Below are positions 1,109 to 59,369 of a DNA stretch of 64,000 nucleotides, piece by piece. The notes under the pieces are model-generated. The model saw nothing but the letters and a program-made list of their open reading frames with translations, had not been told where the DNA came from and did not search any database. Origin of the DNA: a virus (taxonomy: Duplodnaviria; Heunggongvirae; Uroviricota; Caudoviricetes). The DNA lies in IMG/VR virus record IMGVR_UViG_3300028584_001240; one strand, 5' to 3'. The position numbers and the translations under genes were made by a program. Each line of letters begins with the position of its first letter. The first letter of the stretch is position 1.

Positions 1109-1135
1109 AGTTCACCTTTAATATAAATTTCCCAA

Positions 1136-1164
1136 ATTATATACACATATAACATAAAAATCAA
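1136..1164 (-). promoter_or_regulatory. Sigma70-type promoter (TTGATT-17-TATAAT)
   Basis: Near-consensus -35/-10 with 17-bp spacer upstream of the 1108 start. Confidence 0.65.
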
Positions 1165-1192
1165 CTTGTTTTTGACGGACTGCTCATTTAGT

Positions 1193-1891
1193 TTATATTT
1201 TTGTCATTGCAATCAAAGAATTATAACGTGTAAAGTCTTCTGCATACAACTTTAATGACGCCAAAAAATCGTCAGCAATTAAAATATCTTTAATAGATGT
1301 ATGTTCCCACAAAAAATAGAAGTCTCGTAAATATGGCTGATAAAGCTCATTTAATCCATTTTCTTTCAAAAAAACTACATCACCCCTATCATAAATATAA
1401 TGATCAGAAAGATGTTGATAATTTTCATCACTCAGTGTAGGATCTTTATGGTTTTGAAATATCACTCTAACTCTCGTTAAATTACCAAACTTATCAAATG
1501 AAAATTCACTGCTAGCTCGTGTTTTATTTTCACATTCAAAACCACCCAGTTCTTGAGCCATTAAATAAAATCTTTCACGAAGATCATGAATACTAAGGTC
1601 ATCGGTATCAAATAATGGAACCAATGGCTCACCAACCCAAGCCAATATTTCATAATGGATATTTTCATAAAATGGACTTGTTTTGGTGGCCGAAACATTG
1701 ACAGTTATTGGCTGTTTACCAGACAAAAAAATTTGAACTCGTTCATCTTCGATAACACTATTAAATTCACTAATATTTGTCCCTGATTGGTCAAAAACAT
1801 TTTGCCACTTAGCATAAAAATTCTTCAAAATATCAGAAGACACATCTATAATATCGGCATCATCCACAATGATTGTTTTATTAATATTCAT
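1193..1891 (-). CDS. Hypothetical protein, tandem family 1, C-terminal MxxI tag (LIAMTKI)
   Basis: Shares FxFLWEHTSI...ExYxxLxxMxKI C-terminal block with three neighbours. Confidence 0.85.
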   Translation of the reverse strand: MNINKTIIVDDADIIDVSSDILKNFYAKWQNVFDQSGTNISEFNSVIEDERVQIFLSGKQPITVNVSATKTSPFYENIHYEILAWVGEPLVPLFDTDDLSIHDLRERFYLMAQELGGFECENKTRASSEFSFDKFGNLTRVRVIFQNHKDPTLSDENYQHLSDHYIYDRGDVVFLKENGLNELYQPYLRDFYFLWEHTSIKDILIADDFLASLKLYAEDFTRYNSLIAMTKI

Positions 1892-6132: not shown

Positions 6133-6264
6133 TTAGTTGTTCTCCTGAATTTTCATAATTATAGCAAAGAATAGCCTTCAACGCAACACTTTTTTAAAAT
6201 AGTTCGTAAATAGTTGAAAAAGAAAAAAGCCAGAAAAATCTGGCCTTTCATCTGCTAGTCGCTG

Positions 6265-6392
6265 CCTAACAACATATACTTGGCCTTTGTAGCCTGACCT
6301 ATGCGGGTGCTTACGCGAGTCCTGTGTTCTCTTTTAAAGAGCAGGGGGACAAAAATCCCGGCTCTATTAGCTTACGCCAATTCTTTGTTAGT
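6265..6392 (-). ncRNA. Putative structured RNA motif, copy 1 (homolog at 7991..8092)
   Basis: GC-rich multi-stem fold (CTAACAA/TTGTTAG, TTGGC/GCCAA, GGGA/TCCC, CCTG/CAGG, CTCTT/AAGAG), followed by a terminator at about 6224-6248. Confidence 0.55.
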
Positions 6393-6894
6393 CATTATAG
6401 ACATCCAGCTTACGAAAGAGTTCAAATAATTCTTGATTTCCTTGTAAACGATCTAGAAAACTATTATCTTGACCATTAAACATTTCTAAGGTGACGAAGA
6501 ATTCTTCAATATAATAGAAAGTTTGACCAAAACTATTATGCTGAGATAAATAAGCATGTGATGTAACGCCAGTATTGGTTTCTAACAGAATGACCAAATC
6601 CTTTGTTTCACCATAATAAACAGCTACCAGACCATTTTCACCAGCTTCGGCCACCGCCTCAATAAACTCATCTTCAACTAATTCGTTAAAGATATCTTCT
6701 GTTTTGTCTTTATCAACATAGAAAATGAATGCACCATGATCTTGTGGTCTTGAAAATAGATCTTCCAAGTCAAATAGACTGAATACATCATTTACGTTAT
6801 CATCGGATACATCACCAAACACCATTGCCAGATCAGGCACTTTAAAACAATGCACTAAGCTGTCTAGTTTTGGATTTTGGATTTCATGAAACAT
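6388..6894 (-). CDS. Hypothetical acidic protein, paralog of 6907..7410
   Basis: Shared PDxxxxFGxVS, VDK, GxNxxVxVYxxGxKDLxIxxET motifs. Confidence 0.85.
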   Translation of the reverse strand: MFHEIQNPKLDSLVHCFKVPDLAMVFGDVSDDNVNDVFSLFDLEDLFSRPQDHGAFIFYVDKDKTEDIFNELVEDEFIEAVAEAGENGLVAVYYGETKDLVILLETNTGVTSHAYLSQHNSFGQTFYYIEEFFVTLEMFNGQDNSFLDRLQGNQELFELFRKLDVYND

Positions 6895-6906
6895 AATTAT
6901 TTTCCT

Positions 6907-7410
6907 TTATTCTTCTTCAATAGAAATTTCTTTCAACGCGGCCAATATTTTAGGAGCCTTACCAACATAATGATAGAAATTGGATTCTTTGTCGTTCATA
7001 AGATCTTTTGTTGGGTAAAAATGCGGAACCTCAACAAAATCATCAAGAATATCATGTTCACCTTTTAAATCACAGCCTGTCATAAAACCTGAAGTCTCCA
7101 TCCAAATAATCAAGTCTTTATCACCTAAGTGATAAACAACCACAAACGCATTATCACCACATTCATCAAGAGAGTCAACATATTCGTGATTCGTCAATAG
7201 TGTTATAACTCGTTCAGTTAACGATTTATCAACTAATGCAAGTTCAGCATCATGATCATAACTTTCTTCGAGAAATTTTTCAAGCTGTTCAACTGTAGTA
7301 ATGTCTAAGCTATTTTCACCTGAAACATTACCGAAAGCAATAGAAATATCAGGCTTTTTCAACAGACCAATCACATTATCAATTTTAAGATTTTTAATAA
7401 GTTCTGCCAT
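6907..7410 (-). CDS. Hypothetical acidic protein, paralog of 6388..6894
   Basis: Same motifs as 6388..6894; AGGGG RBS. Confidence 0.85.
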   Translation of the reverse strand: MAELIKNLKIDNVIGLLKKPDISIAFGNVSGENSLDITTVEQLEKFLEESYDHDAELALVDKSLTERVITLLTNHEYVDSLDECGDNAFVVVYHLGDKDLIIWMETSGFMTGCDLKGEHDILDDFVEVPHFYPTKDLMNDKESNFYHYVGKAPKILAALKEISIEEE

Positions 7411-7444
7411 TTTTTCCCCTTAGTTATTTATCAGTCATACTGGT

Positions 7445-7828
7445 TTAAAAGTTAATGAAATTATGATCAAACATATTATGGTTATAAATCTGAGCAATCT
7501 GACCATCAGGATACGCTAAGACATAATCCGCCATATACATTTCATCTTCGATCTCTGGATCGTATAAAATATCTGTCTTCTCGTAAGTATCATACAACTT
7601 ATCAATCATATACTCACGAAAATCATCATCAGTTAAAGATTTCCCATGTTGCTCACATATGTCAGCAATATTAAAATTATATTCCTTCATAACGTTATTG
7701 TATAATTTCATAAGAGATTTAGTATTAAGAGACAACAATTCATTTTCTGTTTTAATCGTCTTTTTACCATCCTTAATTGCTGAACGGCTAATCGCTTTTT
7801 TTAAAACCTCAATAACAATCTGCTTCAT
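7445..7828 (-). CDS. Hypothetical protein (about 127 aa, MKQIVIEV...)
   Basis: Start moved to ATG after GAGGA; the longer ORF call overlaps tRNA-Gly. Confidence 0.7.
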   Translation of the reverse strand: MKQIVIEVLKKAISRSAIKDGKKTIKTENELLSLNTKSLMKLYNNVMKEYNFNIADICEQHGKSLTDDDFREYMIDKLYDTYEKTDILYDPEIEDEMYMADYVLAYPDGQIAQIYNHNMFDHNFINF

Positions 7829-7875
7829 AGAATGTCCTCTTTTATAATTAGAAATCACTGTAAACCACAAATAAA

Positions 7876-7893
7876 AAAACACCCGAAGGTGTT
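7876..7893 (-). terminator. Terminator of the tRNA operon
   Basis: AACACC-TTCG-GGTGTT followed by a T tract on the minus strand. Confidence 0.75.
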
Positions 7894-7900
7894 GTAAATT

Positions 7901-7974
7901 TGGAGCGGAATACGAGGATCGAACTCGTGTAGCCAGCTTGGAAGGCTGGAGCACAGCCACTATGCCAATTCCGC
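7901..7974 (-). tRNA. tRNA-Gly(TCC)
   Basis: Full cloverleaf GCGGAAT...CCAGC-CTTCCAA-GCTGG...GTTCGA...ATTCCGC-T-CCA. Confidence 0.95.
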
Positions 7975-7990
7975 AATAACGATTAAACTC

Positions 7991-8092
7991 ACACTTCCAG
8001 TTTGCTTATACTCGCTTTTGCAGTCTTCGCAGATCCTGTGCTCTCGTCGGGAGTAGGCTTCTAGAGCCTTGCATAATTTCTTTGCTGAGTGT
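7991..8092 (-). ncRNA. Putative structured RNA motif, copy 2, inside tRNA operon
   Basis: Shares CAAAGAA...CTC-loop-GAG-A[AG]CACAGGA...GCG.AAG...CAAA.G...AGTATA with 6265..6392; closing stem ACACT-CAG/CTG-AGTGT. Confidence 0.5.
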
Positions 8093-8102
8093 TTATTTAA
8101 TC

Positions 8103-8220
8103 TGGTGCGGAACGGTCTTACAACACGAACCACATATCTTTCGTGCCCATTTAAGGGCTTTACAGTAAAGGGTTTTAGCCCTGTCGCTGGGGTAGATTAC
8201 TGCTATCTTCGCCCAACCAA
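8103..8220 (-). ncRNA. Putative CCA-terminated multi-hairpin RNA of unknown class
   Basis: Hairpins GTTGGG/CCCAGC, AGGG/CCCT, GCCC/GGGC, ACGAA/TTCGT; ends TTCCGCACCA with the same GATTAAA trailer as tRNA-Thr. Confidence 0.4.
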
Positions 8221-8222
8221 AA

Positions 8223-8351
8223 TGGTCTGCTTGTATTCGGACTTGAACCGAAGATTAAATCCTCAATGACTCTTTCAGCCCCGGAAGCCTTAGCTGTGGT
8301 TGACTAGTATACCACAACGTTCATTAATTCATCAATAAACCTATTACAAGC
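8223..8351 (-). ncRNA. tRNA-like RNA (acceptor stem plus T-arm, enlarged central region)
   Basis: GCTTGTA/TACAAGC 7-bp stem abutting TTCGG-TTCAAGT-CCGAA T-arm; about 90-nt multi-hairpin insert; ends AGACCA. Confidence 0.55.
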
Positions 8352-8364
8352 ATAAATTTTAATC

Positions 8365-8440
<76 letters not shown>

Positions 8441-8469: not shown

Positions 8470-8498
8470 ATACTACAGTAATCACTCATTGAAGTCAA
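8470..8498 (-). promoter_or_regulatory. Promoter of the tRNA operon (TTGACT-17-TAGTAT)
   Basis: Sigma70-like match 30 nt upstream of tRNA-Thr. Confidence 0.7.
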
Positions 8499-13205: not shown

Positions 13206-13324
13206 GATTAACCTCTTAATATGTTATTTAAATTATATTTATGATATGATTTAAATTTAAACATGTCAAAAAAAATAAAAAGACTGAAGCAAAAAAACCA
13301 CCGAAGTGGTTTTAAATATTTTCA

Positions 13325-13395
13325 AGTTCGCACTTAGGGTAGCGTATCACCTATTTTAACAACCTTATTTCTAAGGTCACTCGTGCCTAAACGGC
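13325..13395 (-). ncRNA. Structured trailer between tRNA-fMet and its terminator
   Basis: ACCTTA-GAAA-TAAGGT hairpin plus GCAC/GTGC or GTTTAGG/CCTAAGT pairing; terminator at about 13291-13313. Confidence 0.3.
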
Positions 13396-13401
13396 TAAAT
13401 C

Positions 13402-13476
13402 TGGTTGCAGGGGCGGGAATTGAACCCACGATCTTCAGGTTATGAGCCTAACGAGATACCACTTCTCCACCCTGCG
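13402..13476 (-). tRNA. tRNA-Met(CAT), initiator (fMet) type
   Basis: CGCAGGG...CTCATAA...CCCTGCA-A-CCA; C1:A72 mismatch and A11:U24 pair. Confidence 0.93.
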
Positions 13477-57995: not shown

Positions 57996-58668
57996 TCAAC
58001 ATTTGAAGAACAGTAGAGTCTTCTGGTGTAAGATCTTCTTTCTTTTTGCCAATCTTTGAAAAAATAACACTCTCAAAAAGATCTGCAATAGACTCTTCAT
58101 AATCATTATATTCAACATAACCAGAAACAATTCTGTAATCTATTTCAATTGTTCTCTTTTGTAGATTAACAACTGGATATAATCTGATTTCATAGTTATG
58201 TCCTAAATCATCTATATACGCATCTAATAGGAAACAATAGTTATTCCCATCATACTGAGCATAAAAAAGAATGTCATCTATCGTCTCTGGTCGTTTTACA
58301 CCTGTATGTTTGTTCCCATAAGCAAACGTATAAATAGCATGAACCTCATCGTAGGCCCGAGACATTAACTGAAGGATTGTTTCTTTTCCTGTGATGTTGA
58401 AGTGTTTCTCAAAATCCACGAAAGCTTCTTTCCAGCCAGAATCAATAATAAAAATGTCATCTTCGTGTTCTCTGTCTTCGGCTGAAAAGAAAAAAGTTTC
58501 ATTACATAAAATGTATGAATACTCATCTGCAAATTTAAAATGTAAAAAGGTGTCAGGATGATTCCTTTTCATTTCTATATATGTTACAGGCAAAGAAGAC
58601 ACAGTATTCTCTTTAACAATGGCTAAAAGTTCTTGTGTGATGGCTTCTTTGCTGAGTGTGGTTCTCAT
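57988..58668 (-). CDS. Hypothetical protein, tag (VLQMLNV); paralog of 58665
   Basis: PETxxD.....YDGxNY shared. Confidence 0.8.
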   Translation of the reverse strand: MRTTLSKEAITQELLAIVKENTVSSLPVTYIEMKRNHPDTFLHFKFADEYSYILCNETFFFSAEDREHEDDIFIIDSGWKEAFVDFEKHFNITGKETILQLMSRAYDEVHAIYTFAYGNKHTGVKRPETIDDILFYAQYDGNNYCFLLDAYIDDLGHNYEIRLYPVVNLQKRTIEIDYRIVSGYVEYNDYEESIADLFESVIFSKIGKKKEDLTPEDSTVLQMLNV

Positions 58669-59369
58669 TTATCTTCCTTTTTATTATCGTTTGTATTAAG
58701 TTTCCAAAAATTTTCTTGTGTTTCACCTTTCGGCGGTGTCACATATTTACTAATAAAACCAGCTTTCATTTCTTCAAAGTTGGCATACTGATCATGCCCA
58801 ATGAAATATCTAAATTTAAAAAAGAAGGTTTTCGTTTCAATATTTAACATAGGATCGGCAAGTATCATCATTTTTGTGTAATAGTTATCATCACCCACAA
58901 CCGCTCTCAAAAAGTAGTTGTCACCATCATAATACATCGAATCAATCATATCTTCCAAGGTTTCTGGTTTAGTTGAAGTGATCTCAACACCCAAAAATGT
59001 TTTGTAGAAGTCACTTAACTCTTCATACTGTTGTCGTAACTCCACCAGAAAAGAATCGGACATTGTTAAAAAATTATTCATATAATTAATAATGCTAGAT
59101 CGGTCATAATAAATCAGATTAAACTCATCAGGAGATTCATTCTCGTCCAATTCGGCAGATCGCATCAAATTATAGTAATCTTCTGTGATCTCACCATCTT
59201 TACTCAGATTGAAATAAATTTCGTACAAGCGTTCGTTAGGACAACTTAAACTTTGCAAAATAATATCTTTACCCATCGCCTTAACATTATATTCAAGTGC
59301 AGATAAAACTTTTTCGAAAATTTCATTTGGGATGTTATCTGGTATGTTATTCAATTTTACATCATTCAT
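58665..59369 (-). CDS. Hypothetical protein, paralog of 57988 lacking the tag
   Basis: KPETLEDMIDSMYYDGDNY; ends NDNKKEDK. Confidence 0.8.
   Translation of the reverse strand: MNDVKLNNIPDNIPNEIFEKVLSALEYNVKAMGKDIILQSLSCPNERLYEIYFNLSKDGEITEDYYNLMRSAELDENESPDEFNLIYYDRSSIINYMNNFLTMSDSFLVELRQQYEELSDFYKTFLGVEITSTKPETLEDMIDSMYYDGDNYFLRAVVGDDNYYTKMMILADPMLNIETKTFFFKFRYFIGHDQYANFEEMKAGFISKYVTPPKGETQENFWKLNTNDNKKEDK

Follow-up and report, generated by a model that had tools for sequence, protein, structure and literature searches.

Two non-coding segments on the minus strand of a viral genome fragment raise the question of whether structured RNAs are made there and, if so, whether they are of one kind. 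The fragment, 64,000 nucleotides (nt) of DNA from a Caudoviricetes virus (IMG/VR record IMGVR_UViG_3300028584_001240; hereafter the window), had been described in a first-pass annotation as carrying, at 6265-6392 and 7991-8092, two diverged copies of a structured RNA motif outside known classes. The strings quoted for both stretches were found at these positions on the minus strand, and the placement was borne out as well: the first stretch lies between the stop codon of a 168-amino-acid (aa) open reading frame (ORF) and an intrinsic terminator, the second between tRNA-Thr and tRNA-Gly. That both are structured, functional RNAs of the minus strand, belonging to no known class, is very probable in view of conservation above that of neutral sites and of covariation in the first. 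The two stretches, for which the labels copy 1 and copy 2 are kept here, are probably separate RNAs and not copies of one motif. The analysis supports both as previously undescribed conserved structured RNAs, copy 1 through covariation and copy 2 through conservation close to that of tRNAs.

Relatives suitable for comparison were found in raw metagenome assemblies only. The two flanking proteins, of 497 and 215 aa, have homologues that led to syntenic contigs. Logan contigs break inside tRNA-Thr and tRNA-Gly, and most of them yield copy 1 alone or neither element. Contigs from ENA and JGI (L048, 171,020 bases; L050, 1,843,594; L053, 243,722; L055, 520,353) span both tRNAs and carry the two elements arranged as in the window. 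In L043, which is more distantly related, tRNA-Thr, a tRNA mimic and tRNA-Gly are present; the CCA-ending unit that precedes copy 2 in the window, copy 2 itself, two paralogous ORFs and copy 1 are missing.

Nothing similar to either element was found among INPHARED phages, PLSDB plasmids, IMG/VR or GTDB species genomes; the ENA and JGI contigs are themselves absent from these four collections, and almost all of their ORFs could not be annotated. Searches by blastn against the known phages of INPHARED and the plasmids of PLSDB returned tRNA matches only, and protein-anchored locus searches of IMG/VR and GTDB genomes gave no relatives. A 20-mer from copy 2 was absent from IMG/VR and GTDB genomes and present in one JGI contig, identical to L053. 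In the comparison with Rfam that the first-pass annotation had proposed, only tRNAs passed the gathering threshold (Rfam 15), leaving both stretches unassigned. At E<=10 nothing lay over either stretch except one sub-threshold match, to the gammaproteobacterial rimP leader (6195-6281, minus strand; 33.6 bits against a threshold of 47), which covers the last hairpin of copy 1 (hairpin D below), the terminator and downstream sequence, and which is probably driven by the terminator.

The 5′ end of copy 1 is the stop codon of the 168-aa ORF (6388-6894); on its 3′ side come the intrinsic terminator and then the promoter of the 497-aa gene. The features recognised here are as follows.

6251-6388, minus strand: RNA domain of copy 1 (family model R1), with five hairpins and the conserved unpaired segments UCGCGUAAGCACC..CAUAGGUC and AAGUAUAUGU.
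6366-6381, minus strand: hairpin A, AUURGC / GCUAAU, with a GUAA, GUGA, GUUA or UUCG tetraloop depending on the genome.
6338-6365, minus strand: hairpin B, AGAGC..GGG / CCC..GCUCU, with an invariant GUCC in the loop.
6317-6331, minus strand: short hairpin, GAG-N9-CUC, which is GAA/UUC in three genomes.
6282-6294, minus strand: hairpin C, GGCU-N5-GGCC, with GACU/AGUC and AGCU/AGCU variants and two pairs changed on both sides.
6252-6272, minus strand: hairpin D, UUGUUAG-N7-CUARCAG, with one G-C to A-U swap.
6214-6249, minus strand: intrinsic terminator following copy 1, from a terminator scan; its stem covaries among orthologues.

Model R1 scores 164.7 bits at 6251-6388 and finds one orthologue per related genome. 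Identity between copy 1 and its orthologues is 75-90%; at four-fold sites it is 56-72% in the 497-aa gene next to copy 1 and 14-61% in the upstream ORF. Copy 1 being more conserved than these sites, it is under purifying selection. The five-hairpin fold and the terminator were derived with RNAalifold and manual inspection. On the alignment of seven distinct orthologues (A7), 96.9% of the cells in this fold are paired and seven pairs show double-sided changes; none of 500 shuffled alignments reached these values, and controls with the fold slid along the alignment gave 30-49%. The inner pairs of hairpin B covary (GGG/CCC, GUG/CAC, GAG/CUC, GGU/GCU), pair 61/71 of the short hairpin is G-C in four genomes and A-U in three, and GNRA and UUCG tetraloops interchange in hairpin A. 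Many of the G-U pairs fit the minus strand alone. In L039, the upstream 168-aa paralogue has decayed to a 26-codon C-terminal remnant (1131-1211, plus strand, the neighbouring paralogue of 167/169 aa being intact), and copy 1 is nonetheless intact (152.7 bits), which suggests that it is kept for its own sake. Together, conservation, compensatory changes, strand-specific G-U pairs, tetraloop swaps and retention in L039 point to selection on copy 1 as an RNA. An own promoter for copy 1 was considered and rejected: the TATAAT that overlies the stop codon shows no conservation and has no -35 motif at usable spacing.

Copy 2 occupies part of the 390-nt spacer between tRNA-Thr and tRNA-Gly. The corresponding features are listed below.

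7975-8105, minus strand: copy 2 RNA (family model R2), the spacer from the CCA-ending unit to tRNA-Gly, closed by GAUUAAAU/GUUUAAUC and ACACU/AGUGU.
8055-8069, minus strand: hairpin AGGCU-CURGA-AGCCU, whose sole change is in the loop.
8021-8038, minus strand: hairpin CAG(GA)UCU-loop-AGACUG, with a GCGA, GCAA or UUAU loop depending on the genome.
8470-8498, minus strand: promoter-like site of the tRNA operon, TTGACT-17-TAGTAT, kept in relatives.
8365-8440, minus strand: tRNA-Thr(UGU), first gene of the operon that holds copy 2.
7901-7974, minus strand: tRNA-Gly(UCC), directly 3′ of copy 2.
7878-7893, minus strand: intrinsic terminator after tRNA-Gly, at the end of the tRNA operon, from the terminator scan.

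Model R2 scores 158.9 bits at copy 2, again with one orthologue per related genome. Across relatives, identity in the core amounts to 90-98%. The corresponding values are 100% for the flanking tRNAs, 85-92% for the tRNA mimic and 71-98% for the CCA-ending unit, while the neighbouring proteins reach just 51-60%; copy 2 is thus conserved nearly as strongly as the tRNAs on either side. Nearly all substitutions fall in the loop of the AGGCU-CURGA-AGCCU hairpin, in the loop and closing pair of the CAG(GA)UCU hairpin (five of the few that there are) or in the outer helices. One of the latter, ACACU/AGUGU, becomes UUACU/AGUAA by one C-G to U-A swap and G-U changes; the other joins the 5′ trailer GAUUAAAU to GUUUAAUC just before tRNA-Gly. 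The proposed fold, made of the terminal helices and a four-way core, has all 142 cells paired (100%), every sequence being compatible with it. Near-tRNA-level conservation, substitutions that are loop-sited or compensated, and inclusion in a single transcription unit suggest that copy 2, too, is selected as an RNA.

Whether the two RNAs belong together was assessed with the models and by direct alignment. The first-pass annotation had called for a covariance model built from the two stretches; models were instead built for each family on its orthologues, and neither ever detects the other stretch. R1 and R2 each recover their own orthologues only, one per genome, at 144-165 bits. No cross-hit was obtained in the window at E<=10 with filters off, nor at E<=1 across 181 kb of related loci; with nhmmer, too, the family profiles gave none at E<=100. 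In a strict local alignment, copy 1 and copy 2 score 20 against 15.3 +/- 2.2 for shuffled sequences, a value reached in 17 of 500 shuffles, and the alignment spans just GAGARCACAGGA and a few more bases. When copy 2 was aligned to every 146-nt segment of the 64 kb on both strands (1742 segments), copy 1 ranked fifth, four unrelated segments scoring equally high or higher; the top-scoring ones are coding sequence. Among them is 58526-58671, the start of an ORF, which contains a 15-mer identical to copy 2. This 15-mer (ACACTCAGCAAAGAA, from the 5′ end of copy 2) lies at 58645-58659 on the minus strand, where an unrelated ORF of 226 aa begins, and is a chance match that shows how much background similarity the window offers. 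Pairs of this sort will turn up when a window is read by eye. The architectures differ as well: hairpins follow one another in copy 1, while in copy 2 the two ends close a junction. With no cross-hit from either type of model and with a pairwise similarity that falls within the background tail, the two stretches appear unrelated. Their description as two diverged copies of a motif thus finds similarity at background level and no common fold.

Some observations weigh against the account given so far. Several of the compensatory changes in copy 1 are common to L039, L040 and L053 and may trace to few events, and the folding energies of single sequences are unremarkable (z -1.0 to -2.4). The alignment of copy 2 (A6) consists of four distinct sequences with one double-sided change, and 122 of 500 shuffles reach its covariation score; with so little variation, its internal fold is not established. 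A very old common origin of the two RNAs, beyond detection, could still lie behind them. As to transcription, processing, stability and action in trans, we infer these for both RNAs from sequence.

What might copy 2 do? The operon could be read as one transcript, running from the promoter through tRNA-Thr, the tRNA mimic, the CCA-ending unit, copy 2 and tRNA-Gly to the terminator; the terminator scan found no internal terminator between the promoter-like site and the one at 7893-7878. Copy 2 would be released from this transcript as a small RNA some 125 nt long whose ends are paired. By standard processing of tRNA precursors, RNase P would generate its 3′ end by cutting at tRNA-Gly, and its 5′ end would arise when the ..CACCA/GAUUAAA trailer of the unit before it is trimmed. 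The ends would then pair (GAUUAAAU/GUUUAAUC, ACACU/AGUGU, CAG/CUG) and enclose a compact multi-hairpin core. The near-invariance of this core makes it most likely that copy 2 accumulates as a stable RNA and has a specific binding partner. Alternatively, it might be a structured spacer acting in cis, which, by arranging folding and the access of nucleases, helps the flanking CCA-ending unit and tRNA-Gly to mature and is degraded afterwards. In the terminal helices the leader of tRNA-Gly is indeed paired to the trailer of the unit before copy 2, as such a role would have it, and the GAUUAAA trailer, which also follows tRNA-Thr, can pair with that same leader; the near-invariance of some 85 nt of internal sequence, variable in loops only, nevertheless exceeds the needs of a processing stem, and L043 matures tRNA-Gly without copy 2. 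We therefore regard the spacer as an unlikely explanation and favour the stable RNA with a partner.

The other units of the operon also depart from ordinary tRNAs. The tRNA mimic (8222-8352, minus strand) combines a 7-base-pair (bp) acceptor stem (GCUUGUA/UACAAGC) with a T-arm (UUCGG-UUCAAGU-CCGAA), and its 3′ end reads ..AGACCA; about 100 nt stand where a tRNA has its D and anticodon arms. Its counterpart in L043 (60-205, plus strand) has the acceptor stem GGGUACA/UGUACUC and the T stem AUCGG/CCGAU, both helices covarying with those of the window. An inner 7-bp stem, GUUGUGG/CCACAGC, covaries too (GUUGCGG/UCGCAAC in L048), and the loop AUACUAGU is conserved. The CCA-ending unit (8103-8221, minus strand) comprises several hairpins and ends in ..GUUCCGCACCA, followed by a GAUUAAA trailer like that of tRNA-Thr. 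Since the 3′ part of the unit is similar to tRNA-Gly in its T-arm and acceptor end, a tRNA origin is possible; in L053, which reads CACUAG, the CCA is absent.

The arrangement recalls bacteriophage T4, whose RNAC (species 1) and RNAD (species 2) are transcripts of the tRNA region, small stable RNAs of unknown role (PMC3014915, PMC9697503). In the layout of the T4 sequence, rnaC and rnaD adjoin tRNA-Arg in the tRNA cluster. Like these RNAs, which measure about 120-140 nt, copy 2 is a non-tRNA RNA beside tRNA genes in one cluster; it lies within a tRNA cluster served by a single upstream promoter-like site and a single downstream terminator. Further likenesses concern the units that precede copy 2: the end of T4 rnaD, ..GCGCACCA, mirrors the CCA-ending unit, and the T-arm-like GGUUCGAAUCC of rnaC mirrors the tRNA mimic. 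Unlike rnaC and rnaD, copy 2 has neither a T-arm nor a CCA end, and it sits between two tRNA-type units and not at the end of the cluster. Neither R1 nor R2 gave a meaningful match to T4 rnaC/rnaD (L060, 2909-3172), indicating no homology of sequence or structure. By analogy, copy 2 would be most like T4 RNAC and RNAD as the same kind of object, a kind and not a homology family.

Copy 1 would be an independent domain of about 135 nt and five hairpins, placed at the 3′ end of a three-ORF transcription unit with the terminator directly after it. It most likely forms a stable 3′-terminal RNA, either a small RNA derived from the 3′ untranslated region (UTR) or a stabilising or protein-binding 3′ domain. 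Bacterial small RNAs derived from 3′ UTRs, such as CpxQ, SroC and DapZ, and stabilising domains close to terminators provide precedents. In common with such small RNAs, copy 1 is conserved and structured, extends from a stop codon to an intrinsic terminator and is conserved independently of the upstream ORF; it differs in being larger and more structured than is typical and in coming from an uncultured phage-like element. Neither a seed-target pair nor a processing site nor Hfq-type features were identified for copy 1, and a search for antisense targets in the window yielded nothing beyond T-rich chance matches and a single 15-mer, on the same strand, within coding sequence.

With a terminator directly behind a structured domain, the layout could also be that of a cis-regulatory sensor, similar to a riboswitch or an attenuator, which governs read-through into the 497-aa gene. 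Pairing is possible between the 5′ arms of hairpin C (GGCU/GACU) and of the terminator (GGCC/GGUC), which change together in L039 and L053. This alternative pairing is however just 4 bp long and fails in L048; moreover, the downstream gene has a conserved promoter of its own after the terminator and works without copy 1 in L043, and no riboswitch family matches. A read-through switch is thus quite unlikely, and a weaker alternative than a stable 3′ domain or a small RNA derived from the 3′ UTR.

Still less probable, and very much so, is the view from which the analysis started, that of one non-coding RNA family with a junction closed by a loop-E motif, a CTC/GAG hairpin and a compensated GYA/URC helix. 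The collinear blocks common to both stretches in this genome (CAAAGAA, GAGARCACAGGA and AGTATA) speak for it, as does a soft-scored local alignment whose score was reached by just 4 of 500 shuffles, but the 12-mer GAGARCACAGGA is not kept in copy-1 orthologues, and all three blocks (the last read as AGUAUA) vary there and are invariant only in copy 2. At the block GAGAACACAGGA, the chief link to copy 2, orthologues show GAGAATACAGGA, AAAGACA-AGGA, GAAAATATAGGA, GAGAATAGCGGA or GAAACTGTAGGA. Exact-pattern scans of IMG/VR with the shared blocks gave 38 matches, all 38 of them by chance and mostly in apparent coding sequence. Both stretches are GC-richer non-coding segments of the same strand in a window of about 32% G+C (GC), which would suit a common family; the segments that equal or outdo copy 1 in similarity to copy 2, and the lack of any reciprocal model or profile match, do not.

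The proposed helices fared no better on the copy-1 alignment. CCTG/CAGG, CTC/GAG and GTA/TAC show no double-sided change, and every shuffle (500 of 500) does as well. In the CTC/GAG stem, pair 49/61 is broken in three of seven orthologues, and its GAG is the very one that covaries with the downstream CUC in the short hairpin. The change from GTA/TAC to GCA/TGC had been taken as compensatory between the two stretches; within the alignment GTA/TAC pairs without compensatory change. A closing stem for copy 1, CTAACAA/TTGTTAG, was rejected as well: it competes for the same 5′ arm with the covarying hairpin D, which excludes it, and its 5′ strand lies in the non-conserved region of the stop codon. 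Support for copy 1 is therefore for five serial hairpins and not for a junction closed by loop E. As for loop E itself, the likeness to the sarcin-ricin motif consists in GAA and AGUA strings, which in this genome are present at either end of each stretch. In copy-1 orthologues the bulged G and the GAA positions vary: the G of AGUAUA becomes A in two lineages (AAAUAUA in L040 and in L050/L051), and GAA is replaced by UAA in L039 and GCA in L053. Copy 2 shows no variation at these letters and so says nothing for or against the motif; in a departure from it, the GUAUAA segment of copy 2 is able to form a 6-bp helix with UUAUGC. A loop-E motif is unsupported. The shared blocks are best read as coincidence, the sequences giving no demonstrable homology.

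Least credible of all is that the conservation of copy 2 reflects protein coding, by a 57-codon ORF lying over it (7960-8133), or a site acting at the DNA level: although this ORF is open in four genomes, it has no ribosome-binding site and runs into tRNA-Gly, identity is near-total at all three codon positions (compared to 56-72% at four-fold sites nearby), a clustered 5-nt change alters two residues and the G-U pairs fit the transcribed strand alone, so that coding over copy 2 was rejected.

The surroundings of the two RNAs add little by way of known functions. Two adjoining paralogous ORFs of 167 and 168 aa (6388-7410, minus strand) separate the tRNA operon from copy 1 and match no family. 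Most ORFs of the window are without a Pfam or PHROG match; the recognisable genes encode NAD synthase, TilS, an intimin-like protein, a chemoreceptor-like protein, endonuclease I and a T5orf172 protein. The whole is reminiscent of a huge phage or some other extrachromosomal element of very large size, a megaplasmid and a cell with a small genome being further candidates. Some 90 nt of GC-richer non-coding sequence at 13310-13400 (minus strand), between tRNA-Met (13402-13476) and a terminator, may be a further RNA appended to a tRNA. L050/L051 carry an insertion, an IS607-like pair, some 6 kb away from the tRNA operon (10784-12708 of L050, minus strand); it consists of a TnpB-like ORF, with a weak Cas12f1-like_TNB match, and a MerR/resolvase-type ORF, and is absent from the window.

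A two-member RNA family with a loop-E core is a claim that should not be carried forward. What takes its place are two well-delimited conserved RNA elements without a database match, in very large and almost wholly unannotated phage-like replicons, whose contigs reach 1.84 Mb. For copy 1, the covariation is already sufficient to define a family model. Copy 2 belongs to an independent lineage with non-tRNA RNAs in a tRNA operon and offers comparative material for the question of what RNAC and RNAD do in T4. A bolder proposal, which we consider speculative and unlikely, is that copy 2, the tRNA mimic and the CCA-ending unit belong to an undescribed set of tRNA-operon RNAs of a giant uncultured element (contigs of 0.5-1.8 Mb), acting on the translation or tRNA-surveillance machinery, and that copy 1 represents a second new class with a specific protein or ligand partner. 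If this were true, the tRNA-operon RNAs could be, for example, decoys or adaptors for host nucleases that target tRNAs or for tRNA modification enzymes.

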